Numbered from the stretch's first letter, positions 17,257-58,244 are shown. The stretch is DNA of 64,000 bases from Bacteroidota bacterium (GCA_040388395.1 JAZKBY010000014.1:143800-207799); one strand, 5' to 3'. Made by a program: numbers and translations. The notes: generated by a model not told the origin, from the sequence alone.

Positions 17257-17971
17257 AACCAGGGGCATCGTACTAAAAACCACCGACTATGGCGAAAGCA
17301 GTGTTATAGTACAGGTTTTTACGGAAAAGCTTGGGCTGCAATCGTACATCATTAATGGGGTAAAAAAGCCGAAGGCGAAAATAAGCCGCAATATGCTTCA
17401 GCCGCTGCACCTATTGGATATGGTAGTTTACCACAAAGCGGCAGGCAATGTACAACGTATAGCCGAACTTAAAACCTCGCCGGTACTGCTTAGCATCCCT
17501 TACGACGTTATAAAAAGCAGCATGGCCATGTTTTTAAACGAGGTGCTGTATAAGTCTATCCGCCAGCAAACTGCAGACGAGAACCTGTTTGATTTTGTTT
17601 TCAGCGCTATAGAATGGCTGGATCATCAAACCGTGGGCCTGGCTAATTTCCACCTGCTTTTTTTATTACAGCTTACCCGCTACCTGGGCTTTTATCCCGA
17701 CAGGTACCAGGCCAATGTAGCTGATTATTTTGACCTGAAAAATGGGGTGTTTGTAAAGTATAAGCCCGATAGTGTTTCATATTTATCGCCACCACATACT
17801 CAAAATTTTGGCAAGTTATTACAATGTAATTTTGAGAGCCTGCCTGCATTAAAACTAACTAATGATGAGCGCCGGTATTTAATAGCCAAACTGCTTGAAT
17901 ACTACGCCCTGCATATAGAGAGTTTTGGCAGTATCCATTCGCACGAGATACTGGAAGAGGTGTTGGGATAA
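17246..17971 (+). CDS. recO: DNA repair protein RecO
   Basis: KTRGIVL....YGE.S.IV..FTE..G and LQPL..LD motifs; RecO_C region. Confidence 0.93.
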   Translation: MLHKTRGIVLKTTDYGESSVIVQVFTEKLGLQSYIINGVKKPKAKISRNMLQPLHLLDMVVYHKAAGNVQRIAELKTSPVLLSIPYDVIKSSMAMFLNEVLYKSIRQQTADENLFDFVFSAIEWLDHQTVGLANFHLLFLLQLTRYLGFYPDRYQANVADYFDLKNGVFVKYKPDSVSYLSPPHTQNFGKLLQCNFESLPALKLTNDERRYLIAKLLEYYALHIESFGSIHSHEILEEVLG

Positions 17972-18056
17972 GCCCCACCCAACCCTCCCCGGAAGGGAGG
18001 GCTAAAAAAATGTCAAATTAAAAGTCTCCCCTACCGGGGGAGATTTAAAGGGGGCT
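17971..18056. repeat. REPIN-like inverted doublet (family A), non-autonomous
   Basis: agccccacccaa-ccctccc/gggaggg-ct, an 18-nt spacer, then aagtctcccc-taccg-ggggagatttaaagggggct. The right unit matches 58143-58177 (inverted) at 34/35 nt. Confidence 0.85.
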
Positions 18057-18308
18057 TTACACCTGCAATCCTAAAACCTTTTTCTTTATAAAATCTATGC
18101 TGGAGTCGGGCAGGTTTGAGCCGCCTATTTGTGTTAACGTATTGTCGCTATTGATTTTAAGTTCGGATATAATGTTATCGTCAATAATAACATGTAATAT
18201 ATCATGTTCTTTCTCTACCTGGCAATTTACCTCGCGGCCGGAGTAGTGTAGTTCAAATTGGTATTTCCCGTCTTTTTCGGCTGGTGTAGTGTCTTTTAAC
18301 TCGATCAT
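18057..18308 (-). CDS. Hypothetical protein
   Basis: 83-aa ORF with A-rich upstream region. Confidence 0.65.
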   Translation of the reverse strand: MIELKDTTPAEKDGKYQFELHYSGREVNCQVEKEHDILHVIIDDNIISELKINSDNTLTQIGGSNLPDSSIDFIKKKVLGLQV

Positions 18309-18395
18309 GGCTTGGTGTTTTATTTTTATAACACCATAAAGTGCAGGATGTTTATCTTAACTGTATTTACTTTAAGCTATAAAAAGCTTTTAACC

Positions 18396-18490
18396 AAAAA
18401 GAGAGGGCTTGCAAGCTCTCTCTCCTGTACTAACTGACTCATTAACTTACCATAAAGAACAATTGGTGTAGCTCGATAATAACAATTGTA
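18396..18490 (-). ncRNA. Candidate ~90-nt small RNA
   Basis: Exact TATATTTG promoter (18491-18498, minus strand), then an ORF-less stretch ending in agagagagct-tgca-agccctctct-TTTT terminator. Confidence 0.4.
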
Positions 18491-18610
18491 CAAATATAAA
18501 TTCTACAGAGTTAATAGGTTAATATTCCCGGTAGTTTTAACATGGATTTAACACTATACTTTTACACAAATGGCTAATAATTAACAATTAAAGGGTCGAA
18601 AACGCCTGTA

Positions 18611-21600
18611 TTATCTTATTATAGCTATATAGCCACTAACTTTTGGCCTATTATTATTAAGATCGATAACATAATAATAAGTGCCCGACGGCAGGTTACT
18701 GCCTTTGTAAACGCCGTCCCACGGTTTGGCGTAACCTTTTGATTGATACACTAATTCGCCGTTGCGGCTGTAAATATTTACCAGGCAGTTTGGATAACTT
18801 AATAAACCTGTAATGGTCCAAAGATCATTAATGCCGTCGCCGTTTGGCGTGAAGGTGTTGGATGGTAATATTTTAAGAGGTGGCTTAATAGTTAAAGTAA
18901 CCGGTGCACTGGTTGCGGGCGCCGCGCAGCCGCCAGATAAAATTGTACAGGTAACCTTATCGTTATTTAAAAAAGTGGATGAGGTGAAGGTATGGCTATT
19001 TGTGCCTGCGCTATCCCCATTTACCTGCCACTGGTAAGTTATAGCACCTATTGTATTTAAAGGTGTTGCTGTAAATGTAATCAGAGTACCCTCGTACACA
19101 TTATTGGCCGACTCGGCTATGGTAACAGTTGGCGCCGGGCTTGCCGGGGCCGTAATATTAACCGTTAAAGAAGTGGAGTTAGCTGTACTTGAAACAAGGC
19201 ACGGTGTCGAGCTATTTGTAAATGTGCAGGTAACCTTATCGCCATCATTAAAAGTGGTGCCGGTATAAGTACTACTGTTTGTTCCGGCAGCGGCTCCGTT
19301 TAAATACCACTGGTAAATATTGCCCGCGGCTGTATAATTTGGTGTAGCTGTAAAAGTTATCGCGGTGCCACTACAAACCGCGCCGTTTGCCGATGATTGG
19401 ATGGTAATGCTTAAAGCAGACATTGGGGTTATTGTGAATGCCGGAGAAGTACCAAAATCAAAGGCTGAACAGGCAGCATTATTTGTAACCGTACATTTAA
19501 CAATGTCGGCGCCTGTTATTAATGACGATGTATATGTATTGCTGTTTGTACCCACGTTGCTCCCATTTACCTGCCATTGATAAGTGGGGTTGGTGAGCAA
19601 TGCAAGATTGCTAACGGCAGCTGTAAAAGTAACTGATGCGCCTGCACAAATAGTTAAATTATTGGGTGTAGCACTATTATTGGGTGTAACACTTACTATT
19701 GGCCTTAGGCCCTCGGTAACTACTAATGTTTGCGACACAGGTGCTGCGTCGTCATAAAAACTTGCATCTCCAACCTGTGATGCGGTTATGATAGTAGTAC
19801 CCCCACGCGTAATATGTATAATCCCGCTATTATCTATAGTTGCGACTGCCGTATTGCTGCTTGTATAAGTAATAGGGTGCGTAGCAGAAGTTGCGCTGGT
19901 AGCACCGCTTGAAAAATCTGTAGAACAAAGAGTTTTTGCTGCTATAGCCGGGAAAATGATTTGCTGGCTTAGCTTAAAAGTTGCTGTGGTAGTCGCACTT
20001 CCCGCTGTAAAATGTGCCGTAGCGCCCTGCGATGCGGTGATGGTAACCGTGCCGGCGCCCACCCTATGTAAAACGCCATTGGCATCAACACTTATAACCG
20101 CCGGGTTGTCGCTGGTATAGGTAACCGGCGCTTCGTCGTTGTTAGTTGTAACAGATGGTGTAACCGTATTATCAGCATTAGTTTTTAAAGCAGGCGTATT
20201 AAATGTTATGGTAGTTGCTGATGTGTTTGCTACTTCAAGGTTTAACCTAAAAGTACTGCTGCCGCCACCATTGTAAGCGGTAATGGTATACGTTTGCATT
20301 GACGATGGCGCAACCGGTTTGCCGCTAATTATGCCGGTTTTTTGGTCAAAAGACAATCCCAGGGGTAATACTTTATCTATCTGATAACCGGATACAACTA
20401 CCTTCATCACTTTAGTAGCGTTATCGCCGATGTAGAGATTGCCAAGCCCATCAAGCACCGCACCGACAATAGTTGTTGTAAACGTAGCTAACGTAGTTGC
20501 TATATTGGCAGGCGTTATTCTTACTACTCTTTGGTTAAGCTGATCTGTTACATAAATATTACCACTGCCATCAACCTTTACGTCACGCGGAGATTTTAAG
20601 GTGCCTGCGGGGATCGGAATAGTTGTTAGATCGCCATTGCCAGTTACTTTTTGTATACGGTTATTGTCCGCGTCGGCGATATATAAATTACCAGAGGCAT
20701 CTATGCCGACTCCACTTGGTGATTTAAGCGTTCCGGCGTCAAAAACGGTGGAAACGAGGGCTGTTTTGGTATCTATTTTTCGTATTAAATTATTCCCGAA
20801 ATCGGCCACATAAATATTGTCAGATGCATCTATTGCTAATCCCCGGGGCGCACTAAAAGTTGCAGCATTGCCTATGCCATCAAACTTTCCGGCAGTTGAC
20901 GTAACACTGCCGGCAAAAGTTGATACGGTGCCTCCGGGTGTTATTTTTCTTATGGCATTATTGGTCTGGTCTGACACATATATATTGCCAAAAGAATCAA
21001 AAACAATACCTATAGGATTCGCGAAATTGGATATGGCGGCAGGCCCGTTAGTATTGCCTGAGGAGGTGTTCCCCGCCACTATTGTAACAGTACCCGTTAT
21101 AGCATCTATTTTTTGGATTTGGTTTGAACCGGTGGTTGTTACATATATATTGCCCAATGGGTCCGTAGCCACAGCTGTACTGCGGTTAAACCCGCTTGCT
21201 ACTTCTGTGGTTTCTCCATATATCGTAGCAGGCACTGCACCGCCGGTGTTAGTTGGTGCTAAAGGTGTAATTGTTACGCCTGGGCTATAAGTTTGTGGTG
21301 ACGCATAACTGATTTGCGGCGCCAGGATTTTAGGCGGTGCTGGTAAACCGTTAACCTGGATCTGTAAAGTGGTAGAACTGCTCCCGCTTATATTGTATGC
21401 AGTTATAGTATAATTTGTAGCCACAGAAGGAGCTGTAGGCGTACCACTTATAATTCCTGTGGTAGCATCAAACGTTAGGCCAGGGGGTAAGGTTTGATCG
21501 ATGCTGTAACCTGTTAGGTTTAGTTTTCTTAACCGGTTATTGGCTTTGTCGGCTATATACATGTTGCCTGTATTATCAAATACTATGTCAGCAGGGGTGC

Positions 21601-23902: not shown

Positions 23903-23973
23903 AAGGCAGGGGCTATCAAAAATAAAAAAAATCCCCTGAAAGCCAACAGCTTAACAGTATAAAAATGGATGGC

Positions 23974-23997
23974 AAATGTTATGCATGCATAACATTT
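23974..23997. promoter_or_regulatory. Perfect 24-bp palindrome, candidate operator upstream of icmF
   Basis: aaatgttatgca|tgcataacattt, just upstream of the TAATTTTG -7 element at 24014-24021. Confidence 0.5.
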
Positions 23998-24039
23998 TTA
24001 ACGTAAATTTTATTAATTTTGTTTTATACCAACTATACT

Positions 24040-27000
24040 ATGGATAGCGTCGCTTATCAGTCTGCCAATAAAATACGTTTTGTTACCGCTGCTTCATTGT
24101 TTGACGGGCACGATGCTACCATAAACATTATGCGCCGCATACTGCAGGCCAGCGGCGCCGAGGTTATTCACCTGGGCCATAACCGCAGCGTTGACGAAGT
24201 AGTAAACTGCGCCATACAGGAAGATGTACAAGGCATAGCGCTAACCAGCTACCAGGGCGGGCACGTAGAGTATTTTAAGTATATGCACGACCTGCTTGCC
24301 GAACGCGGCGCGGGTCATATCAAAATATTTGGCGGCGGTGGCGGGGTATTCCTCCCGCACGAGATAAAAGAATTGCAGGATTACGGTATCAGTAAAATCT
24401 ACTCTCCCGACGATGGCCGTACGATGGGTCTGCAAGGCATGATAAATGACATGCTGAAACAGTGCGATTTTAAAACTGTAACCCACTTAAACGGTCAATT
24501 AAAACAAATAGGCGATAAAGACGCGCATGCGATAGCAAGCCTGATAACGCTGGCTGAGGCCGGCACTACAATACCTGCTACTGCACCTGCTACCAAAACT
24601 ATCCCCGTTATCGGCATAACCGGTACAGGAGGCTCTGGCAAATCATCATTGGTTGATGAACTGGTGCGCCGCTTTTTGATGGAGACGGATATTACGCTGG
24701 CTATTATTTCTGTCGACCCAAGCAAACGCAAAACAGGCGGTGCTTTATTGGGCGACAGGATAAGGATGAATGCTATTAATAGTCCGCGGGTTTATATGCG
24801 CAGCTTGGCTACGCGGCAGGCTAATCTGGCTTTGAGTAAACATGTGCAAGAGTCGGTTGATATTTGTAAGGCGGCGGGGTATGACCTGATCATCGTTGAA
24901 ACATCGGGCATTGGGCAGAGCGATACCATGATAACCGATTATTGCGACCTGTCGCTCTACGTAATGACCCCCGAATTTGGCGCGGCATCGCAATTAGAAA
25001 AAATTGATATGCTGGACTTCGCCGACATGGTGGCCCTTAACAAGTTTGATAAACGCGGCGCGTTAGATGCTATCCGCGATGTGCGCAAGCAATACAAACG
25101 CAACCATAAATTATTTGAGGCAAAGGATGCTGATCTGCCAATTTACGGTACCATGGCATCGCAGTTTAACGACCCTGGAATGAACGCCTTGTTTGCTGCG
25201 TTGGTGGATAAAGTGACGGTTAAAACTGGTGTGACAATAAAGTTAAATGATATTATCAGTTTAGGTGATAGCGAAGCGGAGAAAATTTACATCATCCCGC
25301 CCGAACGTACCCGTTACCTGGCAGAAATTGCCGAAAGCAGCGATGCTTATACCAAATGGGTAAATGAGCAATGTAAAATTGCGCAGCAGTTGTGGCAAGT
25401 TAAAGGGGTAATGGAAATTGTAGAGACGCAAAATGTTGCGTCTCTACGTGACATTGAAAAACACCTGGAGGAACAATTACATCCCGATTGTAAACGCCTG
25501 CTGGCTGATTGGCCCGCCACGGTTGAAAAATATAAGGCGCCTGATTTTATTTATAAAGTGCGCGATAAAGAGATCAAACAGCCGTTGTTTTATACCTCGT
25601 TATCGCAATTGCAGATCCCTAAAATATCCCTGCCTAAATATGAGGCATGGGGTGATATTTTACGCTGGCTGTTAACCGAGAATGTACCCGGAGAATTTCC
25701 ATATGCTGCGGGCGTGTTCCCGTTAAAACGTGAAGGCGAGGACCCAACCCGGATGTTTGCCGGCGAGGGCGGCCCGGAGCGGACAAACAAGCGTTTTCAT
25801 TATGTCTCGTTAGGCCAGCCGGCGCATAGGTTAAGTACCGCGTTTGATTCTGTTACGCTTTATGGCGAGGACCCTCATGTACGCCCTGATATCTATGGTA
25901 AAATAGGCAATGCCGGAGTAAGCATAGCCACGCTTGACGATGCCAAGAAACTCTATTCAGGTTTTGATCTATGCGACCCGTCAACATCGGTATCTATGAC
26001 CATAAACGGCCCCGCACCTATGCTACTTGGGTTTTTTATGAACGCGGCTATCGATCAGCAATGCGAAAAATATATCATTGAAAATAAGCTGGAACATTTG
26101 GTTGAGGCTAAGTTTAAGGAAGTTTATGATGATCGGGGGTTGGTGCGTCCGAAGTACGGCGTTGGCAACAAGCCTGGTAGCCTCACCCTAAATCCCTCTC
26201 CAAAGGAGAGGGACTTCGATGCAGGGAGAAAAAGATTTGGGTATGAAACGGCTAATTTGAAGCTATGGGAGACCTTAAAAGGAAATGCACGCGATAACAG
26301 GCAATACCCTACCGAAGCAGAAAATATTTTATGGCAGTTCCTTAGAAATAATCAAACTGGATTTAAGATCAGAAGGCAACATGCTATTGATGGTTATATT
26401 GCTGATTTCGTTTGCTTGCCAAAAGGATTGGTAATTGAAGTAGATGGAGGGTATCATAATATTACTACAGAACAGGATCAAGTAAGAACTACGGTTTTAA
26501 ATGGCGAAGGATTCTCGGTAATCCGCTTTACTAATGAGGAGGTGATAAGAGATCCTAAATCGGTAGTAAAAGAAATTACTAAAGCGCTTATTAATCAATC
26601 AGACAGGCAAGTCCTCTCCTTTGGAGAGGATTTAGGTGAGGCTAACGAAGCGGCTAATGAGACAAGTTTACCAACCGGAAATGATGGCTTAGGGCTAATG
26701 CTTCTTGGCCTAACCGGCGACCAGGTTTTACCAGCCGACATCTATCAAAAAATAAAAGCCTACGCTATTGCCACGGTACGCGGTACCGTGCAGGCTGATA
26801 TTTTGAAAGAAGACCAGGCGCAAAATACCTGCATCTTTAGCACCGAATTTGCCCTGCGCATGATGGGCGATATGCAACAATATTTTATCGACGAAAAGGT
26901 GCGTAATTTTTATTCGGTATCCATATCCGGCTACCATATTGCCGAGGCGGGAGCAAATCCGGTTACGCAGCTGGCGTTCACCTTATCAAACGGGTTTACT

Positions 27001-27879
27001 TATTTAGAGTATTACCTGAGTCGCGGGATGCATATTGATGATTTCGCGCCTAACCTGTCGTTCTTTTTCAGCAACGGGATAGATCCTGAATATTCGGTTA
27101 TCGGCCGTGTTGCACGTCGCATCTGGGCCAAAGCCATCAAGAATAAATATAAGGGTAATGACCGATCACAAAAACTGAAATATCATATCCAAACCAGCGG
27201 GAGGTCACTGCATGCGCAGGAGATTGATTTTAATGATATCCGTACCACACTGCAAGCTTTGTACGCTATTTATGATAATTGTAATTCGTTGCACACTAAC
27301 GCTTATGATGAGGCCATAACAACGCCAACCGAAGAATCGGTTCGCCGGGCAATGGCTATACAATTGATCATTAACCGCGAATTGGGATTAGCCAAAAATG
27401 AAAACCCTATCCAGGGCGCATTCATCATAGAAGAACTAACCGACCTTGTAGAGCAGGCGGTGATGACCGAGTTCAAAAACATCAATGATCGCGGCGGGGT
27501 TTTGGGCGCTATGGAAACCATGTATCAGCGAAGCAAGATCCAGGAAGAATCGTTGTATTACGAAACATTAAAACACAATGGCGAGTATCCGATAGTAGGC
27601 GTAAATACCTTCCTCAACAAAAAAGGATCGCCAACCATAACACCAGGTGAAGTGATCCGTGCTACCGAGGAAGAGAAACAATACCAGATAAGCGCATTAC
27701 ATGCCTTCCAGGAGCGTAATGCCGATATGATAGGCCAACTGTTGCAAAACCTGCAACACACCGCAATAGCCGGCGAAAACATCTTTGAAAGCCTGATGGA
27801 AGCATGTAAGTATTGCTCGCTGGGGCAAATCTCGCATGCGTTGTATGAGGTGGGCGGACAGTATAGGAGGAATATGTAA
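24040..27879 (+). CDS. icmF: Fused B12-dependent acyl-CoA mutase/MeaB GTPase (IcmF-type) carrying in-frame insertions
   Basis: N-terminal B12 domain (DGHD..IN), GTPase ([25 protein letters not shown]) and mutase domain ([47 protein letters not shown]). ATG at 24040. Confidence 0.93.
25420..25447. repeat. GTAG-type REP palindrome inserted in frame in icmF (encodes VETQNVASL)
   Basis: gtagagacgcaa-aatg-ttgcgtctctac, 12-bp perfect stem; sister copy at 30361-30385. Confidence 0.8.
26179..26643 (+). mobile_element. DUF559 endonuclease cassette with hairpin terminal inverted repeats, inserted in frame in icmF
   Basis: Left IR 26179-26216 agcctcaccctaaatccctctccaaaggagagggactt. Right IR 26609-26643 (reverse complement agcctcacctaaatcctctccaaaggagaggactt). 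Length 465 nt = 155 codons. Interior encodes T.AE..LW..LR..RRQ..YIADF..L.IEVDG.YH..D..R...L...G..V.RF.NEEV. Confidence 0.88.
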
Positions 27880-27886
27880 GAGGTTT

Positions 27887-29434
27887 CTATCTATGAAAAT
27901 CCAAATCCTGAAAATCATAACTGAAATCTGTTGCCGGGGTTAGCGGTTTCATTTTAAAGCCCGAAGGTTTATTATTCTCATCCATAGATACAATTACAAA
28001 CGCGTCGGCATTCATATCGCGAATAAGCCATTTAACAATATAAGTATTGGCTTTGTAAGGCAGCAGCTCGCCGGTTAGTTTTGGCGACCGTTTAGCCCTG
28101 AACATTATTTTGCCCTGGTCATTGCTGATGGTTACATCGCCCAGCCAAACATCATGATAGGTGCCCAAAACAGTCGCATCTACTTTTATGCCTGCCTTTT
28201 TGCTGTCGTCAACCTGTTTCCATATAGCGTTCAACGCAGCATCATTGTCCCCCTGCGATTTTTTGATGGCATCATCATAACGTTTCACCCAATCAACAGT
28301 ATTTACACCTAAGTAACTATCCTTAATTTCATTAACTATCGAACTGAATGCGGCGCCAGATTGTTGGTTGGTCAATACAATAATCCCCAGTTTAAGTTCT
28401 GGTATCAGGTTCACCTTGGTTACCATTCCATCGATGCCTCCTGTATGGTTCACTTCTTTATAACCTTTTACATCGCTCATGAACCAACCTAACCCATAGG
28501 CCGCGAAGTGCGTATTGTATACCCCGGGCGCCGCAACAGGTATAATAGTTTGCGGGCTCCACATCTGGTTATGGATCGCCTCGCTGAATAACTGTTTGCC
28601 AACACCATATTTGCCGTTATTCATTTGCATGATAACCCATTTAGCAAGGTCATTAACGCTTGAATAAATACCGCCCGCCGCATTGCCGGTTACCGACAGA
28701 TAACGGTCCACAACCTCGACCTTGCCGTCAATAGGCACGTGGGAATCAATAACATTGCTGCGGTTTTTTAACCGTTGGTAGGATGCCGAGCTATTGTTCA
28801 TGCCTAATGGCTTCATAATGCGGGTTTCTATAAATTCCTCCCAACTCATACCCGACACGCGGGCAACAACCTCGCCTGCCACTTTGTAAAGCTGGTTATC
28901 ATAATCGTACTTGGTACGGAAACTCGATACCGGCTTAAAATAGCGCAGGTTATGTATTACATCCTTCATGGTAAAATCCGTCGAATCGGGGAAGTCCATC
29001 AGGTCGCCTGCGCCCAAACCCAATCCGCTGCGGTGTGTAAGCAGGTCGCGAATAGTAAATTCGGACGTTACCCAGGGGTCATATAATTTAAACTCGGGGA
29101 TATAATCGGTTACTTTATCATCCAACTTCAATTTACCTTCGTCGCTTAATATACCAATTGCAGCCACGGTAAAGGCCTTGCTGTTTGAGGCGATGCCGAA
29201 CAGTGTATTGGCATCAACCGGCTTTTTGGTATTTAAGGATGCTATACCATAGCCATGCGCGTAAACTATCTTATCATCCTTAACAACCGCTACGGCAATG
29301 CCGGGAACGTCAAAAGTTTTAAGGGTTTTTAAAACCAACGAGTCGATTTGAGCTGGTTTAAGTTGGGCAGCAGCGTTGTTGATTTTTAATGCTGATAAGA
29401 TAACCAGCACCGATAAGGTTCTAAATTTCGACAT
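27887..29434 (-). CDS. Serine hydrolase, beta-lactamase/AmpC family with C-terminal DUF3471-like domain
   Basis: Signal peptide; F.IASNSKAF (SxxK), LLTHRSG, Y.N (YDN) and HTGG motifs. Confidence 0.9.
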   Translation of the reverse strand: MSKFRTLSVLVILSALKINNAAAQLKPAQIDSLVLKTLKTFDVPGIAVAVVKDDKIVYAHGYGIASLNTKKPVDANTLFGIASNSKAFTVAAIGILSDEGKLKLDDKVTDYIPEFKLYDPWVTSEFTIRDLLTHRSGLGLGAGDLMDFPDSTDFTMKDVIHNLRYFKPVSSFRTKYDYDNQLYKVAGEVVARVSGMSWEEFIETRIMKPLGMNNSSASYQRLKNRSNVIDSHVPIDGKVEVVDRYLSVTGNAAGGIYSSVNDLAKWVIMQMNNGKYGVGKQLFSEAIHNQMWSPQTIIPVAAPGVYNTHFAAYGLGWFMSDVKGYKEVNHTGGIDGMVTKVNLIPELKLGIIVLTNQQSGAAFSSIVNEIKDSYLGVNTVDWVKRYDDAIKKSQGDNDAALNAIWKQVDDSKKAGIKVDATVLGTYHDVWLGDVTISNDQGKIMFRAKRSPKLTGELLPYKANTYIVKWLIRDMNADAFVIVSMDENNKPSGFKMKPLTPATDFSYDFQDLDFHR

Positions 29435-29523
29435 GATGAGATCAGTTGTGTGCGTTACTAAAATACAAAATTTATGTCAACTTCATCCTGATCCGCTATC
29501 CCTAACCACGATAACCTTGTTAT

Positions 29524-30288
29524 CTATTTCAAAATCTTCGCTATAGCCTTACCCCAAAACTCACCAAGTGCAACTGCTCCTTTGGCATTGGGGTGCAGGT
29601 AAAAAATGCCTTGCTTGCCATTTTCGGCCTGAAAATCTGTGAGATAGTTTTTCTTAAAATATTTAAACGCTTTGGTATCGCCAACATATACTTGTTTAGG
29701 GTTTGTGGCTTTATAGTTTTCCGCCAATTCATCAATTACCGGGATATAAGTTTGCAGGCGATCCAGTCCCTCCTGTAAATACATTGAACCATTATAAGTG
29801 TTCGGACTGTACCAAACTGGGTGTTGAATAACTACGATACAGCTCTGGAAATCTTTTAATAACTGATCTATTATATTTTTCAGATTGGTGCGGTAATCCT
29901 CCGCGGCCACGGGTGCGCCGTGCGGGCCTTTCATGGCGCTATCGTTGGTGCCTATTTTGATAGAAAATACCAATTGCGCCTGTTGGTTAGTAAAGGCTTT
30001 GACCGCCGCCTCGGCGGTTATAAAAGCTTTGGTGCCGGGTAGCCAATCTAATGTGGTGAAACCGCTATGGCCCTGGTTTGAGATCTCGACCGAGCCGATG
30101 TTTGATTGCCCTCTTAAATAGTTAGCACAAATCACCGGCGGGGCCTGGGTGTTCCTGTCAGGCAGTCCTGCGCCATAGGTTATACTGTTACCTACGAAAA
30201 CAATATTTAGATCGCGCTTTTGGGCAAAAGCGATTATCGTACTAAACAACAAGGCGAAAGTCAATAAGTACGCTTTCTTAAAATTCAT
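29524..30288 (-). CDS. Secreted SGNH/GDSL hydrolase
   Basis: GNSITYG, N.G.SG, IGTND and HPN.KG blocks. Confidence 0.88.
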   Translation of the reverse strand: MNFKKAYLLTFALLFSTIIAFAQKRDLNIVFVGNSITYGAGLPDRNTQAPPVICANYLRGQSNIGSVEISNQGHSGFTTLDWLPGTKAFITAEAAVKAFTNQQAQLVFSIKIGTNDSAMKGPHGAPVAAEDYRTNLKNIIDQLLKDFQSCIVVIQHPVWYSPNTYNGSMYLQEGLDRLQTYIPVIDELAENYKATNPKQVYVGDTKAFKYFKKNYLTDFQAENGKQGIFYLHPNAKGAVALGEFWGKAIAKILK

Positions 30289-48996: not shown

Positions 48997-49110
48997 AGGT
49001 TATAGTTTGGTTGCCCTAATATAGCTAATATATTACTTACAGAAATATAATTCTTGCCGAAGGCCATTGGGTTTATGATGAGTATGAGTAGGTTGTAAAT
49101 TTAGCAACAG

Positions 49111-50499: not shown

Positions 50500-50533
50500 G
50501 AGGTTATGGTTGCCCTAATGTAGCAGAAATTTT

Positions 50534-52054: not shown

Positions 52055-52068
52055 AGAGGCAATTTAAG

Positions 52069-52809
52069 TTATTGAGCGAATGTTTTTCTTTTAAGCACAA
52101 AGTTGGCACCCAGGTACACTTTCCGCACTAATTCATTCTCCGCCAATACCTCCGGTACACCCGATTCTAATATTTTACCCTCAAACAACAGGTAAGCGCG
52201 GTCTGTAATTGACAGCGTCTCCTGCACGTTGTGGTCTGTTATTAAGATCCCGATGTTGCGATGGCGCAGTTTAGCCACCATGCTTTGGATCTCTTCCACC
52301 GCTATTGGGTCAACCCCGGCAAACGGCTCATCTAATAATATAAAGTTAGGTTCGGCAGCCAGCGCACGGGCAATTTCCGTACGGCGGCGCTCGCCACCTG
52401 ATAGTAAATCGCCACGGTTGCGGCGTACACGGTGTAAGCTAAACTCATCAATCAAAGTTTCCAGTTTTTCTTCCTGTTGTACTTTGGTCATTTTGCCCAT
52501 TTCCAGCACCGCCTTAATATTATCCTCAACAGTAAGTTTTCTAAACACCGAAGCCTCCTGCGCCAGGTAACCAATGCCTTTTTGCGCACGGCGGTACATG
52601 GGGTCGGTAGTTATTTCTTCATCGTCCAAAAATATATGGCCCTCGTTTGGTTTTATCAAACCAACAATCATGTAAAACGAGGTTGTTTTACCCGCACCAT
52701 TTGGCCCAAGCAACCCAACGATCTCGCCTTGCGATACGTTGAACGACACATCGCTAACAACAGACCGCTGCTTATATTTTTTAACTAAATTCTCTGCCCG
52801 TAGGTTCAT
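52069..52809 (-). CDS. lptB: LPS export ABC transporter ATP-binding protein
   Basis: [45 protein letters not shown] and TDHNV motifs. Confidence 0.97.
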
Positions 52810-52818
52810 ATATTTTGT

Positions 52819-52893
52819 TTTACGTTGGACGTGGTACGTTTTACGTTTCTGTTGATTTACGTATAACGTTAAACGTACAACTTATAACGTTCT
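52819..52893. repeat. Heptamer tandem-inverted micro-repeat (NNNACGT)n
   Basis: Four units at 52819-52846 and five mirror units at 52859-52893 running into the recJ stop codon. Confidence 0.7.
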
Positions 52894-54582
52894 TATCCCT
52901 TTTACATTTAACTGTATCGTGCGCCTTTCGCGCCATACATTTTCTTCAATAGTATAACAAATATCAAAAGGTACGTCTTTTTTTATTTGCGATAGTTGTT
53001 CGCCCTGGCCAAAGGCGATGCAATCAAACAAGGCCGAACCTTCCTGCATCACCGTCATCTTTATATGATTCTGCCCCACCAAACCCGGATTACCGCTAAC
53101 GTACACATTTTTTGTAATAAACACCGGCGACATATTCTCAGGCCCGAACGGTGCAAACTGGTTCATCACCCTAAAAAATTTAGGCTCGATCTGTGTTAAA
53201 CGTAATTCGGCGTCAATTTGTATCTGTTGGATCAATTGCTCGGCAGTGATGGTTGCGCTAACTACTTCCTCAAACTTATCCATAAATGCCTCCACATTCT
53301 TGGGGTGCATAGTTAACCCTGCTGCATATTTATGCCCGCCAAACTGGATCAGCAGGTCGCTGCAACCGCATAGCGCCTCATAAAGGTCGTACCCAAATAC
53401 AGATCGTGCCGAACCGGCCACATGCCCGTTAGACTGCGTAAGCACTACTGTTGGGCGGTAATATTTCTCGGTCAATCGCGAAGCAACAATACCTATAACG
53501 CCCTTGTGCCAGTCCTTATTAAATACTACGGTCGATTTTTTGTCGATCAGGATCTGGCTGTCGCCTATCATACCTAAGGCTTCATCGGTTATTTGCAGGT
53601 CGTGCCCCTTGCGTTCGGTATTTTTTATGTTGATGAGGTCGCCTTTTATCTGGGCCTCTTCATCGTTGCAGGCTATTAATAATTCAACCGCGTGTTTGGC
53701 ATCGTCAATACGACCCGCGGCGTTGATGCGCGGGCCTAACAGGAACACGATATCAGATATTGTATAACTTATGCTTTTGCCGGCAACACCCATTAATATT
53801 TTAAGGCCGATGCATGGATCCTCATTTAACTTTTTCAAACCATAATATGCCAGCACCCGGTTCTCGCCGACTATGGGTACAATATCGCAGGATATACTTA
53901 CAGCAACAAGATCATAGTACCGGCTAACCTCTTCAAAAGGCAGGTCGTTTTTTTCGGCGTAAGCCTGGGCAAGTTTAAAGCCGATGCCACAACCTGATAA
54001 TTCTTTAAAAGGATAAGGGCAATCGGCACGTTTAGGGTCAAGCACCGCAACCGCGGCGGGTAATTCATCGCCAGGCGTATGGTGATCACAAATAATAAAA
54101 TCGATGCCTAAAGTGTTTGCATAGGCTATTTTATCTACGGATTTTATCCCGCAATCCAGCGCGATGATCAGGCCGAAGCCATTTTCGGCGGCATAGTCAA
54201 TACCTTGAGTTGAGATGCCGTAGCCCTCTTTATAACGGTCGGGGATATAATATTCTATATTGCCGTGATGCTTTTTAAAGAAGCTGTATACAACGGCAAC
54301 GGCGGTGGTGCCGTCGACATCATAATCGCCGTAAACCATTATTTTTTCACCGGTGGCGATGGCCGCTTCAATGCGTTCGATGGCTTTTTCCATGTCCTGC
54401 ATCAGGAAAGGATCGTGCAGATGGCGCTCGTCCGGGCGGAAGAAATATTTAGCTTCTTCGAAGGTTTTTATACCCCGGTGCAGCAATAAAGTACTTAAAA
54501 CGGGATCGATGTTCAGCTCGGCAGCTAAATGGTTTATATCATCAATTGCCGGTACTTCCCTTATCGCCCACCGTTTATTCAT
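52882..54582 (-). CDS. recJ: Single-stranded-DNA exonuclease RecJ
   Basis: GDYDVDG, YIPDR..EGYG, DCG, DHH, PRINAAGR, GSARS and FGGH.YAAG motifs. Confidence 0.97.
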   Translation of the reverse strand: MNKRWAIREVPAIDDINHLAAELNIDPVLSTLLLHRGIKTFEEAKYFFRPDERHLHDPFLMQDMEKAIERIEAAIATGEKIMVYGDYDVDGTTAVAVVYSFFKKHHGNIEYYIPDRYKEGYGISTQGIDYAAENGFGLIIALDCGIKSVDKIAYANTLGIDFIICDHHTPGDELPAAVAVLDPKRADCPYPFKELSGCGIGFKLAQAYAEKNDLPFEEVSRYYDLVAVSISCDIVPIVGENRVLAYYGLKKLNEDPCIGLKILMGVAGKSISYTISDIVFLLGPRINAAGRIDDAKHAVELLIACNDEEAQIKGDLINIKNTERKGHDLQITDEALGMIGDSQILIDKKSTVVFNKDWHKGVIGIVASRLTEKYYRPTVVLTQSNGHVAGSARSVFGYDLYEALCGCSDLLIQFGGHKYAAGLTMHPKNVEAFMDKFEEVVSATITAEQLIQQIQIDAELRLTQIEPKFFRVMNQFAPFGPENMSPVFITKNVYVSGNPGLVGQNHIKMTVMQEGSALFDCIAFGQGEQLSQIKKDVPFDICYTIEENVWRERRTIQLNVKGIRTL

Positions 54583-54614
54583 ATCTTTGTTGCTTAAAAC
54601 AGTAAATATAGTTA

Positions 54615-54737
54615 ATGTGCAGATATGCAGATGTGCAAATGTGCAGATTTTTGATTGTTAGAATTTTAAAATTACCTGATATAATTAATACATAGTCATT
54701 TGCATATTTGCACATCCGCAGATCTGCACATCCACAT
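54615..54737. repeat. Octamer tandem-inverted micro-repeat (ATRTGCAR)n
   Basis: Four direct units at 54615-54646 and four-plus inverted units at 54700-54737 flanking an AT-rich core in a divergent intergenic region. Confidence 0.75.
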
Positions 54738-54740
54738 ATT

Positions 54741-55511
54741 ATGAAAATTTTCCCACTTGGCGAGGGTTCTTACTCGGTAGACGCTTCAAAAAAATTTATT
54801 CCTTTTGATCCACAGGTTGATAATTTCCGCGACCGGCCGGGTTCGCTATTCATACATGTTAATCCGTTCCTGGTACAAACGTCAACAGACCTTATTTTAT
54901 TTGATTCGGGCTTAGGTTATAAAGATACCCGTGACGAGCTTTTCCTGCATCAGCATATCCGCAACGCGGGTTTTGATCCGGAGGATGTAACATTGGTTTT
55001 GATGTCTCATTTACATTACGATCATTCGGGCGGCTTAGTAGTAGAACGTAATGGTAAGCTCGAACCCAGCTTTCCTGCGGCGGAGCATGTCATACAGCGT
55101 GGCGAATGGGAAACTGCTTTCAGCGGTAAATCATCATCCTACCACCGGGAGATCTTTGATAGCCTGCAACGGTCGGTGCAGATTACTTATGTAGAAGGAT
55201 CGGGCGAGTTTAAGCCGGGAATAAGATATGAACTATCGGGCGGGCACTGCCAGTATCACCAGGTGTTTTGGATAGAAGATGGCGCCGATAAATGTTTTTT
55301 TGGTGGCGATGAGCTACCGGAGCCTGAACAGTTAATAAGGCGCTTTAAAGCCAAATATGATTTTGACGCCCAAAAGGCGATGGACCTGCGCGACGAGTAT
55401 GGAAAAAAAGCCGCCGCCGAAGGGTGGACAACACTATTTTACCATGCAAAATCTTCGCCTGTGGGTAACATCAGTTATAACGGCGATCATTTTACGATAA
55501 CGCCGGTATAA
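54741..55511 (+). CDS. Metallo-beta-lactamase-fold hydrolase
   Basis: SHLHYDHSGG (HxHxDH), GGHC..HQ and GGD motifs; likely start MKIFP at 54741. Confidence 0.9.
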   Translation: MKIFPLGEGSYSVDASKKFIPFDPQVDNFRDRPGSLFIHVNPFLVQTSTDLILFDSGLGYKDTRDELFLHQHIRNAGFDPEDVTLVLMSHLHYDHSGGLVVERNGKLEPSFPAAEHVIQRGEWETAFSGKSSSYHREIFDSLQRSVQITYVEGSGEFKPGIRYELSGGHCQYHQVFWIEDGADKCFFGGDELPEPEQLIRRFKAKYDFDAQKAMDLRDEYGKKAAAEGWTTLFYHAKSSPVGNISYNGDHFTITPV

Positions 55512-55514
55512 AAC

Positions 55515-55551
55515 AAAAAAAGCGATGGGTTTCAAACCCATCGCTTTTTTT
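55515..55551. terminator. Bidirectional terminator
   Basis: aaaaaaagcgatgggttt-c-aaacccatcgcttttttt. Confidence 0.8.
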
Positions 55552-55567
55552 ACGCGTTATGCAAATA

Positions 55568-55978
55568 TTAATTTGCAGCAAACATTTCTTTTATCTTGTC
55601 AACACTTAACGGTTTTGAAATAAAGTTTTTAACCAGCGGGTATGACCGTGCTTTATTAATATCATTACTAAATACAGATGATGATATGATATAGATCTTG
55701 CTTTTACCTTGCGGGTCGATATTTAAGCGTTTGTATTCGTCTAAAAATTCCCAGCCGTTCATTATTGGCATGTTTATGTCCAATAAAATAAAGTCGGGTA
55801 ACAGTGATGGGTCGTGTTTTTGGATCTCAACAAGCTCTTCTATTGCAAACCTTCCGTTTAAGCATGCGGATATAGCGGTGTTATCTATAGCCTTTTTTAT
55901 CAGCTTTATTGAGATGAAATTATTTATCTCGTCATCATCAACTAATAGAATACTTACAGGTTTGTTATCAGGGTTCAT
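55568..55978 (-). CDS. Single-domain response regulator
   Basis: ILLVDDD, ILLDINMP.MNGWEFL, SSS and F.SKPL motifs. Confidence 0.92.
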   Translation of the reverse strand: MNPDNKPVSILLVDDDEINNFISIKLIKKAIDNTAISACLNGRFAIEELVEIQKHDPSLLPDFILLDINMPIMNGWEFLDEYKRLNIDPQGKSKIYIISSSVFSNDINKARSYPLVKNFISKPLSVDKIKEMFAAN

Positions 55979-56184
55979 ATATAAGCGCTTATACGGACTA
56001 TCTTAAAAAAGGTTGTATTCCTATATGTTGTAACACCGTTAAAAGTAAAAGTGTTTTAATTTACATGAATATACAAGCAATATTACATAAAGATTGCATA
56101 AAATAATAACAAAATTATTACAGGCCTCAATTCTTTCCTTTGGCGAAATTTAGTGTCAGTGTAGTATAATTTTCTGAAAAATAA

Positions 56185-56215
56185 AATGCAATTAAGTTGC
56201 ATTAGTATATATTTG
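56185..56215 (+). promoter_or_regulatory. Candidate Fur/Zur-family operator plus -7 promoter for merC-fur
   Basis: aatgcaa-ttaag-ttgcatt inverted repeat (56185-56203) abutting TATATTTG (56208-56215). Confidence 0.55.
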
Positions 56216-56219
56216 TGCC

Positions 56220-56648
56220 ATGGCATCAAGAAAGTTGGGCAAACGGTTAGATAATTTAGGAATGACAGCATCAACACTATGCGCTATACATTGCGCAATA
56301 GTGCCCATATTGCTTACTTTTTTGCCATTGGCGGGCGTAGGGTTTTTAGCAAACCCATTGTTTGAATGGAGTATGATTACGCTGGCATTATTGCTGGGCG
56401 TATCGTCTATTTTTTTATCTTACTTCCGTACGCATAAACGGGCATTGCCGTTATTGTTATTGTGTAGTGGGTTTGTATTGGTAATTGCAGGGCATATTTA
56501 TTTAAGGGGTTGGGAAGAAGCCATTGTTGTACCCCTGGGCGGGTTGACAATAGCGGCAGCGCATTTTATTAATTATAAATTTGTAGGCGTTTGCAGTAAT
56601 AAAGATCATTTTTTTCATTTAGATCATAATCATCCTAAGCGGCGGTAA
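56220..56648 (+). CDS. MerC-domain membrane protein
   Basis: D.LG..AS.LC.IHC motif, four TMs, His-rich C-terminus. Confidence 0.88.
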   Translation: MASRKLGKRLDNLGMTASTLCAIHCAIVPILLTFLPLAGVGFLANPLFEWSMITLALLLGVSSIFLSYFRTHKRALPLLLLCSGFVLVIAGHIYLRGWEEAIVVPLGGLTIAAAHFINYKFVGVCSNKDHFFHLDHNHPKRR

Positions 56649-56668
56649 CGAATGATTGGGCTGCGATT

Positions 56669-56805
56669 ACTCACCCCGACATCGCTTCGCTCGTCACCCC
56701 CTCTCTTCGCCTTCGGCGGAAAGAGGGGGTGAATATTTTAAAATAAAACAACCTCTTTACCGCTTGTGGAAGAGAGGGTCGCGCACGAAGTGTCACGGGG
56801 TGAGT
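56669..56805. repeat. REPIN-like inverted doublet (family B)
   Basis: actcaccccgac...ctctcttcgcc-ttc-ggcggaaagaggg, spacer, then a divergent inverted partner ending cggggtgagt. The left unit recurs inverted at 58184-58244. Confidence 0.85.
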
Positions 56806-56870
56806 AAACGGCGCGCTTTTTATAACAAACTCACTATTTCTTAGTAGTTTTGTAAACATCATTTAATCAA

Positions 56871-57299
56871 ATGGGTATTAATCATCATTTCGAGCATTTA
56901 TTAAAGCGGCACCAGCTTAAACGCACCGAGGCGCGGTTAAGGGTGTTGAATTTATTGGTGAATAAAAAAACGGCCACATCACAACCCGACCTGGAAAGTG
57001 TTATTGGCGATGTTGACCGCGTTACGCTGTACCGTATCCTAAACGCGTTCGAAGAAAAAGGGATCATCCATAAAGTGTTTGACTTAAACGGAACGGCAAA
57101 TTATGCTATTTGCTCGTCTGACTGTGATGAGCATAATCATAATGACGAACACTTGCATTTTAATTGCACCAATTGCAAAAACGTGTATTGTTTAGATGAA
57201 CTGGATATGCCGCCTATAGTATTACCGGCGGGATTTAAATTAGAAAAATTGAGTTTTAGCGCTACAGGCCTTTGCCCAAAATGCGCTAACAAAGAATAA
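56871..57299 (+). CDS. Fur-family transcriptional regulator (Zur/Nur-like)
   Basis: LK.T..R, DRVTLYR.L..FEE.G, H.HF.C..C and G.C..C motifs. Confidence 0.9.
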   Translation: MGINHHFEHLLKRHQLKRTEARLRVLNLLVNKKTATSQPDLESVIGDVDRVTLYRILNAFEEKGIIHKVFDLNGTANYAICSSDCDEHNHNDEHLHFNCTNCKNVYCLDELDMPPIVLPAGFKLEKLSFSATGLCPKCANKE

Positions 57300-57315
57300 T
57301 ATATAGTCCTGTTAA

Positions 57316-58143
57316 ATGAATAAACCCCTTAAGAGCCTGCAGTTGCTTTCGCTAAACAGTATGCTGCTGGCCCTGATCGTATCGTTAAGCTCATTTACTG
57401 CTAAACAGGATACTTCTAAAAAAAGCACCTTCATGTTTAAAACGGTTATTATTGATGCCGGGCATGGCGGTAAAGACCCGGGCACACATGGCCTGCGCAC
57501 TAACGAAAAAACCGTTGCCTTATCTATCGCCAAAAAATTGAGAACTGCATTGCAGGAACAAATGCCTGCTATTACTACCGTGATGACGCGGAGCGATGAC
57601 ACTTTTATTCCGCTGGACAGGCGCGCGGGCATAGCCAATGACCGTAATGGCAATTTATTTATCTCTATCCATTGTAACTCATCGCCCGAAGGGACCCGGT
57701 ATAGTTCACACAAACAAAAAGGCACCATGATACTGGTTTACGGTTATAACCGGGTTAATAAACAGGTAGAAGCAATCCGCGAGAACTCGTCTATCACCTT
57801 TGAAAAAGATTATAAAACCAAATACCAGGACTATAATGCGGACGAACCGGTAAACCAGATCCTGATAAATGCTTACCTGCAAAAGTACCGCAAGCAAAGC
57901 ATCCTTTTTGGTGACCTGCTTAACCAGGAGTTTAAAAGCGAGGGCCGCCAAACTATTGGTGTTAAAGAACAGGTAATATTGGTGCTTGACCACAGCGCTA
58001 TGCCCGCCGTAATGATAGAAACAGGGTTTATTAATAACCCGGATGATGAAGATTATTTAATGTCTGATGCCGGGCAGGATGAAATAGTGCAGGTAGTAGT
58101 TAATGCGCTTAAACAATATAAAGTTAAAACAACGGTGCAGTAA
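57316..58143 (+). CDS. N-acetylmuramoyl-L-alanine amidase (Amidase_3)
   Basis: IIDAGHGGKDPG, EK..AL, FISIHCN and P.V.IETGF..N motifs. Confidence 0.92.
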   Translation: MNKPLKSLQLLSLNSMLLALIVSLSSFTAKQDTSKKSTFMFKTVIIDAGHGGKDPGTHGLRTNEKTVALSIAKKLRTALQEQMPAITTVMTRSDDTFIPLDRRAGIANDRNGNLFISIHCNSSPEGTRYSSHKQKGTMILVYGYNRVNKQVEAIRENSSITFEKDYKTKYQDYNADEPVNQILINAYLQKYRKQSILFGDLLNQEFKSEGRQTIGVKEQVILVLDHSAMPAVMIETGFINNPDDEDYLMSDAGQDEIVQVVVNALKQYKVKTTVQ

Positions 58144-58244
58144 GCCCCCTCTAAATCTCCCCCGGTAGGGGAGACTTTAAATAACCCTCTTTCCGCCGAA
58201 GGCGAAGAGAGGGGGAGACGAGCGAAGCGATGTCTGGGGTGAGT
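58143..58244. repeat. Chimeric doublet: family A unit (58143-58177) plus inverted family B unit (58184-58244)
   Basis: Direct sequence comparison with 18022-18056 and 56669-56727. Confidence 0.85.

Follow-up and report, generated by a model that had tools for sequence, protein, structure and literature searches.

Three-armed repeat units of the BoxC, or "triplex motif", type formed the inverted ends of small cassettes carrying a DUF559 nuclease gene, and units of the same kind were dispersed as inward-facing doublets without a nuclease. This architecture of autonomous and non-autonomous forms was well supported, because nuclease clades matched end families, units and nuclease genes were associated across genomes, doublets and cassettes were polymorphic between relatives, some doublets corresponded to a cassette minus its ORF, and the nuclease was under purifying selection. 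With moderate confidence, we regard the triplex-type units as the ends of DUF559 cassettes, the doublets as their non-autonomous forms and the nuclease as an enzyme that probably acts on ends of its own family. Since cassette ends and nuclease-less pairs shared repeats, DUF559 is a candidate, amenable to testing, for the enzyme behind the spread or maintenance of the units, a mobiliser role suggested by the sequence comparisons.

The analysis covered a window of 64,000 nt from Bacteroidota bacterium (JAZKBY010000014.1:143800-207799), which belongs to the 5.1-Mb genome of a Mucilaginibacter (G000). Five units had been described for this window in an earlier note, and all of them read as described in position and strand (Table 1). 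The pattern AGCCYC-N3-4-YAAMYC matched the window five times, exactly at these units, compared with a chance expectation of 0.28, and none of 100 shuffled windows reached five matches. In a search of the window with a covariance model of copies collected across the genome, the only strong matches were the same five units, with scores of 36–46 bits. Each unit contained a hairpin of 7–9 bp with a DNA folding energy of −7 to −9 kcal/mol, a value for the hairpin part, which alone could be folded. The inward-facing arrangement was also as proposed, with the DUF559 gene between the units at 26179 and 26643 and only a short spacer between those at 17971 and 18056. The unit at 58143 likewise had an inward-facing partner, but the partner belonged to another, longer family (E), and a ~29-kb inversion between G000 and its closest relative, G144, has one of its breakpoints at this partner. 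A complete E-type doublet was added to the earlier list, and its spacer resembled the 3′ subterminal 22 nt of the E-type DUF559 cassettes of G000.

Table 1. Repeat units, doublets and cassette parts located in the window (positions from its first nucleotide).
Feature	Position	Strand	Description
B-type three-armed unit	17971..18003	+	Third arm CCCCACCC, stem CCCTCCC / GGGAGGG; overlaps the recO stop codon by one base
A-type unit	18022..18056	-	Third arm CCCCCTTT, stem TCTCCCC / GGGGAGA; faces the B-type unit 17971..18003
A/B doublet without nuclease	17971..18056	.	86 bp with a spacer of 18 nt; follows the recO stop codon directly
Host gene, fused isobutyryl-CoA mutase (IcmF)	24019..27879	+	1286 aa, frame open through the cassette
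Cassette left end, C/D-type unit	26179..26216	+	Translated, 13 residues
DUF559 (PF04480) Vsr-like nuclease domain	26275..26589	+	In the host reading frame
Cassette right end, C-type unit	26609..26643	-	Translated, 11 residues
E-type doublet without nuclease	56669..56807	.	Two inverted ~60-nt units, 22-nt AT-rich spacer
A-type unit	58143..58177	+	Overlaps by one base the stop codon of an N-acetylmuramoyl-L-alanine amidase gene
E-type unit	58183..58244	-	Faces the A-type unit 58143..58177, forming a hybrid A/E pair

Three arms made up the unit: one of pyrimidines, one of purines complementary to it, and a third that mirrored the stem. By the triad rule applied to the third arm, G was placed with a G–C pair, and A or T with an A–T pair. 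Among 191 pyrimidine/purine hairpins collected de novo from G000, 66 had an upstream arm that was perfect by this rule and 13 fitted with one mismatch, compared with 0 and 4, respectively, after shuffling. In a set of 80 cassettes, each from a different genome other than G000, the rule was obeyed by 115 of the 135 nuclease-proximal hairpins, representing 35 different stems, and by none after shuffling. The flank, which had been described as conserved, was instead found to covary with the stem as a mirror repeat. Because it mirrors the stem as a third arm, each unit is a three-armed intrastrand-triplex motif of the BoxC/PIT/TMECO type, and this motif replaces the hairpin plus fixed flank that the earlier note had offered as the recognition feature. 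The observation that stems vary and stay paired was borne out by compensatory changes in five of seven pairs in an alignment of 48 units (A1) and by the stem variety of the 80-genome set. The units of A1 had been picked for perfect hairpins, so the case for covariation rests on the 80-genome set. The short loops (3–6 nt for the first and ~3 nt for the second) and the G/C-rich stem of 7–9 nt in A1 fitted the published triplex-motif pattern, and a triplex-capable fold is predicted from the three-arm arrangement.

G/C-rich intrastrand triplex motifs of the BoxC, PIT and TMECO kinds were described by Holder et al. (2015, PMC4666352), where earlier triplex-motif work by Hoyne and Maher is cited. 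When compared with TMECO (PMC4666352), the present units shared the order of a C-rich arm, a 3–6-nt loop, a G-rich arm, a ~3-nt loop and a second G-rich arm. The C/D unit, read on the G-rich strand, was CCCTCTCC TTT GGAGAGGGG TT GGGGTGAGG, which is nearly equal to the E. coli sequence CCCTCTCCC TTGA GGGAGAGGG TTA GGGTGAGGG. Both sets of repeats are multi-copy, near-identical within a genome, mostly intergenic and linked to rearranged loci, and inverted pairs joining two loop types, as in TMECO, were represented here by a type-A with a type-B unit. The units are thus real copies of an old bacterial repeat. Unlike the BoxC, PIT and TMECO repeats of the literature, which are described as intergenic orphans lacking a mobility gene in their vicinity, the present units were the ends of DUF559 cassettes, co-existed in several sequence families and were also translated within genes. 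In E. coli, with ~23 TMECO units and one DUF559 gene (ycjD), a BoxC-like unit was located ~165 nt past the stop codon of ycjD and a partial one at the stop codon, and no BoxC-like unit was found on its 5′ side. A search for literature linking DUF559 to BoxC or triplex-type repeats found none.

The window's cassette was inserted in frame within the IcmF ORF and had neither a start nor a stop codon of its own. Its nuclease domain matched PF04480 at profile positions 3–108 of 109 (E 3e-31) and the solved DUF559 protein 3HRL with an E value of 7e-20. PF04480 was the only domain between the cassette ends; the Rfam scan of the window gave no intron, and the Pfam scan of the host protein gave no Hint/intein domain. 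The ADF...IEVDG..H block was kept in all ten in-frame copies. Across 10 species, dN of the nuclease domain was 0.21, compared with 0.055 in the host flanks, and dN/dS was ~0.04–0.08, a ratio that is only rough because dS was saturated between species. Purifying selection acts on the nuclease domain in its in-frame copies.

The insertion site in IcmF, the loop RPxYQ|G.LPxGN, was occupied in 10 of 19 species of the genus, and the cassette was distributed patchily on the host tree, with at least four gains or losses. Empty IcmF alleles of the genus, and those of every other family sampled, were clean and contained no doublet. In-frame copies were also present in leuS, ileS, metH and an MmeI-type gene. 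The cassettes, of ~0.45 kb with inverted ends and DUF559 (Vsr-like, PD-(D/E)XK) as the sole gene, occurred in Mucilaginibacter and numerous other Bacteroidota. They entered new sites, including loops of conserved proteins, where they were translated as an extra domain. All five DUF559 genes of G000, among them free-standing copies on contigs C21, C11 and C6, were located between inverted units; elsewhere, flanking units were found at 17 of 20 sampled DUF559 loci, and units on both sides at 69 of 80.

These sites bear on a homing explanation, which we consider unlikely, in which the doublets are independent repeats spread or kept by the host or by some other enzyme and the DUF559 ORF is a free-standing passenger, akin to a homing endonuclease, that enters the spacers of doublets of its cognate family. 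The doublets would then be vacant targets, or landing pads, for the ORF and would not derive from cassettes. The empty IcmF alleles without a doublet imply that the ends reach sites other than such landing pads together with the nuclease or ahead of it, and the same applied to the in-frame copies in the other genes. The existence of solo units and hybrid pairs is in favour of a passenger ORF, as is the occurrence of units in some genomes without DUF559. The E. coli genome is in line with it too, given the many TMECO units for a single ycjD and the restriction of the BoxC-like units found to its 3′ side. The spread of the doublets themselves is left unexplained by this alternative.

The blastn-short scan of G000 gave ~165 units at ~120 loci, in families A to G and mostly in inward-facing pairs, including 17 A/B and 12 C/D pairs; solo units occurred besides the pairs. 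The doublets were located chiefly in intergenic DNA, often right at stop codons. Hybrid pairs, namely A with E in the window and C with A in frame in the IcmF gene of another genome (G001), indicate that units are able to assort on their own, apart from any cassette. The proposal that the doublets share their ends with the window's cassette was correct as to one repeat superfamily, but the A/B doublets cited for it have no nuclease with A/B ends in G000, which counts against DUF559 as the mobiliser. The true partners of the cassette were the C/D doublets, which are located elsewhere in G000. In leuS of another genus, a nuclease belonging to the same clade was flanked by A-type ends. No DUF559 fragments were found inside the longer inverted pairs of G000. 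One of these regions, a 357-bp F...F pair on contig C1, contained sequence other than DUF559.

When G000 was compared with G144, empty sites were found in G144 for two A/B doublets, one of them the doublet after recO, and its IcmF gene lacked the cassette. The presence/absence polymorphism that had been suggested as a check was thus observed between close species for doublets and cassette alike. Two filled/empty pairs were compatible with a target-site duplication of 0–2 bp, with no consistent length. Within G144, two doublets were aligned to an adjacent E cassette with ~93–95% identity over 78 + 89 nt, and the missing part was a 364-nt ORF segment that began 5 nt ahead of the ATG and stopped 4 nt short of the ORF end. 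Because these bounds coincide with the ORF within 5 nt, the indel is essentially the ORF as a module. This difference suits the passenger alternative, and the insertion of an ORF into a doublet that already existed would explain the indel equally well. In G000, however, the E doublets kept ~20 nt resembling the 3′ subterminal region of the cassette, at a junction different from that in G144; independent deletions fit these differing junctions better than insertion at one fixed site.

On the DUF559 tree, each of six end families was monophyletic, with five changes needed, which is the minimum. Label shuffles required a mean of 13.9 changes, and none of 200 was as low as five. The protein clades match the end-repeat families one to one and are inherited together with them, a match that would be equally expected from target specificity if the ORF were a passenger of the doublets. 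Among 101 genomes of the family, 29 had both units and DUF559, 8 DUF559 only, 4 units only and 60 neither (Fisher p 6e-14, kinship ignored). In 31 genomes of the genus, unit number ranged from 1 to 111 and correlated with DUF559 (Spearman rho 0.58, p 6e-4, kinship ignored; rho 0.48 after each cassette's own two units were subtracted). In the same 31 genomes, unit number was not significantly correlated with Y1_Tnp genes (rho 0.23) or with genome size (rho 0.19). Copy number thus followed DUF559 presence, and end families followed DUF559 subtype; the absence of such an association, or of stem covariation, named beforehand as grounds for rejecting the proposal, was not what the data gave. Two members of the genus (G005 and G010) with 17–18 units and no DUF559 count against the mobiliser reading. 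So do four members with 57–79 units and one or two DUF559 genes, none of them in a large in-frame host ORF.

In the proposed mechanism, the DUF559 nuclease would recognise folded ends belonging to its own family and make a break, through which host recombination and repair would either copy the element or homogenise the copies. This mode would be homing-like rather than a transposase-type strand transfer, and the nuclease may act in trans on doublets with compatible ends. A lone PD-(D/E)XK nuclease is by itself unable to join DNA, which counts against the mobiliser reading, and we know of no DUF559 protein with a known nuclease activity, recognition or cut site. A broader proposal is put forward tentatively, as possible but short of probable: DUF559 (YcjD-type, Vsr-like) may be the missing enzyme partner of the BoxC/PIT/TM repeats. 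Together they would form a new class of transposase-less mobile element, which is recognised by its folded triplex-capable ends, persists in essential genes through translation instead of splicing, and has doublets that are mobilised or homogenised in trans.

The units might also be kept by the host as bidirectional terminators, as stabilisers of mRNA 3′ ends or as protein-binding or structural sites, at which DUF559 is merely tolerated. We consider this improbable, since near-identical 35-nt sequences at dozens of loci indicate copying and not convergence. Many A and B units, when read inward, formed a GC hairpin with a T run after it, and the two window units starting at a stop codon agree with such a function. 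The share of repeat loci between convergent genes showed a modest excess (25%, compared with 15% of intergenic regions), but the share between divergent genes equalled the background (17% for both), and some units were located inside reading frames. With this modest convergent excess and no avoidance of divergent genes, the terminator reading was rejected. The E. coli BoxC relatives had no promoter or terminator activity according to work cited in PMC4666352. Unit sequences were at least 95% alike and the doublet spacers had diverged, a pattern that could reflect host-level selection or gene conversion and not recent copying. Against selection by the host, units were missing at orthologous sites of G144 (4 units, compared with 74 in G000 in the genus comparison), and unit number varied widely within one genus.

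Spread in trans by another enzyme, either a REP-associated Y1 (RAYT) or an IS630/mariner-type transposase with DUF559 as mere cargo, is very improbable: G000 has three clear Y1_Tnp genes and TA borders at about half of its A/B doublets, but the Y1 genes carry REP hairpins of their own with no A–G unit within 1.5 kb, copy number did not follow Y1_Tnp, the genome with 111 units (G016) has no strong Y1 gene, and no transposase gene was located between any inverted pair examined. RAYT was accordingly rejected as the mobiliser.

To return to DUF559 as the enzyme partner, BoxC, PIT and triplex repeats, known since the 1990s and abundant in bacteria ranging from E. coli to cyanobacteria, have to our knowledge no assigned function and no recognised mode of spread. 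The DUF559 family is very large, and we know of no role for its proteins. If the pairing is true, it would give one answer to both the spread of BoxC/PIT repeats and the role of DUF559, and it would account for the rearrangement-prone loci that carry such repeats. Selfish nuclease genes, which can reside within essential genes in introns or inteins, would also have a third way of doing so. The pairing could be examined directly with a small protein and 35-nt oligonucleotides.

When compared with REP/RAYT and REPIN systems, the cassettes had in common one small nuclease-type gene placed between inverted hairpin repeats, the dispersal of the same repeats as nuclease-less inverted doublets, and a separate repeat family for each enzyme clade. 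They differed in that the enzyme is a Vsr-like PD-(D/E)XK protein instead of a Y1 HUH transposase, a third mirror arm is present in the repeats, the cassettes insert in frame into coding genes, and the RAYT-type genes of G000 use other repeats. As in MITEs and their autonomous transposons, terminal inverted repeats were common to gene-bearing and short gene-less copies, the short copies equalled the full element minus its gene, and presence or absence varied between relatives. In contrast to those elements, no DDE, HUH, serine or tyrosine transposase was present between the ends and no clear target-site duplication was found; unlike MITEs, the doublets had spacers that varied between copies with nearly identical ends.

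The nuclease belongs to a superfamily related to the Vsr-like homing endonucleases, which include I-Bth0305I (PMC3239194) and split-intein-associated genes (PMC2677866). As with homing endonucleases, one site in a conserved gene was occupied repeatedly but patchily, with clean empty alleles, in IcmF here and in leuS, ileS and metH elsewhere. However, the cassette was associated with neither an intron nor an intein domain and was simply translated, and it had structured inverted ends and nuclease-less derivatives, in which it differs from homing endonuclease genes. Translation in frame was also a point of likeness to another group of repeats. The Rickettsia palindromic elements are palindromic selfish DNA located in frame in protein genes and translated as an extra peptide, as were those of the present units that sit in frame, and we know of no enzyme associated with them. 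They differ from the present units in sequence and have no third arm, whereas here the same ends carried a nuclease gene.

The five units of the window (table below) read as the earlier note had described them, and each folded a hairpin of 7–9 bp. The pattern proposed in that note matched exactly these five, against 0.28 matches expected by chance, and a covariance model built from genome-wide copies gave the same five as the only strong matches in the window. The window corresponds to C14:143800–207799 of the genome (Mucilaginibacter; 5.13 Mb, 42% G+C), which contained about 165 good copies of the unit, a short GC-rich three-armed hairpin repeat, at about 120 loci. In addition to families A–D, families E (longer), F (short) and G occurred genome-wide. 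An ordinary-looking fluoride riboswitch (Rfam RF01734, 48 bits) was located upstream of a 460-aa ORF, about 300 nt past an A/E unit pair.

Positions of units, nuclease copies and neighbouring features, and sequences of families A–D (window coordinates unless a contig is named; G000, genome of the window; G144, closest relative sampled)
Feature	Position	Ends or sequence	Context
Unit pair	17971–18056		Directly 3′ of the recO stop codon
Unit	58143 (start)		Starts at an amidase gene's stop codon
Unit pair	26179/26643		Encloses the DUF559 domain
DUF559 copy	Window	C-type	
DUF559 copy	G000 C1:289680–290096	F-type	Cassette placed exactly between hisA (stop codon) and hisF
DUF559, two paralogues		E-type	
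DUF559, one copy		G-type	
Family A		AGCCCCCTCTAAATCTCCCCCGGYAGGGGAGACTT	
Family B		AGCCCCNCCCAAACCCTCCCCGGWAGGGAGGGCTT	
Family C		AGCCTCACCTAAATCCTCTCCAAAGGAGAGGACTT	
Family D		AGCCTCACCCCAACCCCTCTCCAAAGGAGAGGGGCTT	
Fluoride riboswitch	58538–58602 (+)		
460-aa ORF	58652–60034		
E doublet	56669–56807	E-type	
E-type cassette array	G144 C12:516655–517590	E-type	Syntenic to window ~13.8–14.05 kb
Doublets with empty sites in G144	G000 C14:126453; 17971		
F...F pair	G000 C1:253397–253753	F-type	
88-nt repeat, window copy	13954–14014		
88-nt repeat at E-type cassettes	G000 C11:205344–205431; C6:40398–40487		
Segment inverted against G144	G000 C14:173324–201943		
Inversion breakpoints	~27885–29524; ~58143–58710		
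RAYT-like genes	G000 C7:951089; C1:368205; C14:227908		
TMECO-type and partial units	E. coli K-12 (L036) 6203–6243; 6393–6430		ycjD region

The flank regarded as fixed in the earlier note proved variable, being the mirror image of the 5′ stem arm, as in CCCCCTCT-AAA-TCTCCCCC of family A and CCTCACCT-AAA-TCCTCTCC of family C. Across from this third arm, a stem C was faced by C, and a stem T by T or A. Read on the complementary strand, G is matched with G–C, and A or T with A–T, as in the triads of purine-motif triple helices. Among 191 pyrimidine/purine hairpins of the genome, picked blind to their flanks, 66 obeyed this rule perfectly and 13 with one mismatch (0 and 4 with shuffled flanks). 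The rule was also perfect in 115 of 135 nuclease-proximal hairpins from 80 cassettes of 80 other genomes (shuffled, 0), with 35 different stem sequences among those obeying it. The layout is that of the BoxC/PIT/TMECO motif (Holder et al., PMC4666352), and the C/D units were nearly identical in sequence to E. coli TMECO. Inverted TMECO pairs of E. coli always combine a type-A and a type-B unit (PMC4666352), and the A+B and C+D pairs seen here repeat that pairing rule. Holder et al. report that they found no mobility gene in the neighbourhood of triplex motifs (PMC4666352). In the E. coli K-12 ycjD region, a TMECO-type unit was located about 165 nt past the ycjD stop codon, which a partial unit overlapped, and a perfect non-triplex hairpin was located just upstream of the start codon.

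All five DUF559 (PF04480) nuclease genes of the genome lay between inverted units. The copy at hisF was joined in frame to the HisF N-terminus, giving a 388-aa frame, and hisF lacked its own start codon; similar DUF559 frames, 378–407 aa long, recurred in several genera of the family. The earlier note had proposed that the dispersed doublets, which are inward-facing unit pairs lacking a nuclease, share ends with the DUF559 cassette. This held for C/D, E, F and G ends, present both on cassettes and on pairs lacking a nuclease (C/D, about 12 pairs; E and F, many pairs each; and G pairs). The A/B family, which includes the dispersed doublets of the earlier note, had 17 pairs but no nuclease with A/B ends in this genome. 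A-type ends flanked a DUF559 of the same protein clade inside leuS of another genus. One inverted F...F pair, 357 bp apart, enclosed no DUF559 and held a cluster of TGGATCAC / GTGATCCA repeats resembling DnaA boxes; its interior could be origin-like, or could represent a different cargo. A further, unrelated-looking repeat unit, about 88 nt long (GCCTTCGGCCCG...CGCTCATAC...CAGGCCTTAGGCGC...GGTATCCGCT.CAATC; about 33 genome copies; no Rfam match at the gathering threshold), lay directly upstream of both E-type cassettes, and its window copy was at the site where G144 has an E cassette array.

The association extended across genomes. Units flanked 17 of 20 further DUF559 loci in nine genomes of the family, and were present on both sides, mostly inward-facing, in 69 of 80 relatives of the window's cassette, drawn from Bacteroidota at large and a few further phyla. 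In the DUF559 tree, six end families each formed one clade, with 5 changes, the minimum (shuffled labels, mean 13.9). When units were counted with the covariance model for families A–D in 101 genomes of the family, both units and DUF559 were found in 29, DUF559 only in 8, units only in 4 and neither in 60 (Fisher p = 6e-14, kinship ignored); every one of the 15 genomes having 10 or more units also had DUF559. Within the genus (1–111 units), unit number followed DUF559 number with rho 0.58 (p = 6e-4), and with rho 0.48 once two units per cassette were subtracted, kinship being ignored in both. Exceptions were two genus genomes with 17–18 units and no DUF559, and several unit-rich genomes in which DUF559 genes numbered only one or two, and none of these was in frame within a large host gene.

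The window's cassette, which has neither start nor stop codon of its own, was in frame within a 1286-aa ORF, on which the earlier note was silent. The ORF encodes IcmF, a fused isobutyryl-CoA mutase comprising B12-binding, MeaB and mutase domains, and its best solved relative (4XC6) matched in two stretches, one on each side of the insert. The insertion point in the IcmF loop lay between RPxYQ and G.LPxGN. An in-frame cassette occupied this loop in 10 of 19 genus species, a distribution for which the host tree requires no fewer than four gains or losses. Another genus genome (G001, locus L015) had an in-frame, nuclease-less hybrid C+A doublet in IcmF, an otherwise "empty" allele (L016) kept a unit fragment, and at three other Mucilaginibacter IcmF loci (L009, L012 and L017) the cassette was accompanied by additional units, nested or in tandem. 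One hairpin at the loop was translated in different frames as PSPKER, ALSKGEG and LSFGE, which indicates conservation at the DNA level. The DUF559 domain evolved four times faster than the host flanks, and its dN/dS of about 0.04–0.08 indicates that it was kept as a working protein domain rather than mere filler. An open frame of more than 300 aa surrounded about 69 of the 80 cassette relatives; of the eight host frames scanned against Pfam, four were leuS, in which the insert occupied two different positions, two were ileS-type, and metH and an MmeI-type enzyme accounted for one each.

The tandem array of G144 consisted of an E-type cassette followed by two E doublets with one common junction, which shows that tandem duplication is a further, local way for doublets to multiply. 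These doublets aligned with the adjacent cassette over 78 + 89 nt at about 93–95%, including 16 + 27 nt of non-repeat subterminal sequence, and lacked only a 364-nt segment, which starts 5 nt upstream of the ATG and stops 4 nt short of the end of the DUF559 ORF. The E doublets of G000, the one in the window among them, had spacers of 18–29 nt, most of which resembled the final ~22 nt of the cassette's interior, and their junction differed from that of G144. The gene is therefore all that separates cassette from doublet. That the junctions differ between the two genomes speaks for independent deletions; the ORF-precise indel of G144, however, is also what insertion of the ORF into an existing doublet would leave.

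G144 shares 93% amino-acid identity in recO with G000 and is syntenic with it over more than 100 kb. Presence/absence polymorphism was seen: G144 had clean empty sites at two doublets and an IcmF without the cassette. At the site of one G000 C/D doublet, G144 had units of a different family, and it contained 4 units, compared with 74 in G000. About 29 kb of G000 was inverted relative to G144, with breakpoints just past IcmF and at the A/E unit pair. At the former, a minus-strand 515-aa ORF of G000 had no counterpart in the aligned G144 segment.

We interpret cassettes and doublets as members of a single element family whose only protein is DUF559, and the autonomous/non-autonomous picture of the earlier note was the best supported. 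In the proposed mechanism, a Vsr-like nuclease would recognise its own family's three-armed ends and make a break, which host recombination would convert into copying or homogenisation. A protein survey groups DUF559 with Vsr and I-Bth0305I in the PD-(D/E)XK proteins, and Vsr-like homing endonucleases occur in introns and beside split inteins. DUF559 also figures among the gene families found enriched as predicted targets of inversion, in keeping with its inverted flanks. A full-text literature search on DUF559 gave nothing on repeats or mobility, and no published description of a DUF559–repeat link was found. Against this reading stand the orphan A/B pairs, the hybrid pairs, the drift of spacers while units stayed conserved, and the lack of a clear target duplication; a landing-pad model and a host-function model were considered beside it. 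Mobilisation by another transposase was also considered. Unit number in the genus was uncorrelated with Y1 transposases (rho 0.23) or genome size (rho 0.19), kinship again being ignored, and the RAYT-type genes of the genome bore hairpins unlike the units. Three RAYT-like Y1 transposase genes each had their own REP-type hairpins, e.g. GGCTCCTCCGGAGCC, so a second, classical repeat–nuclease system co-exists in this genome.
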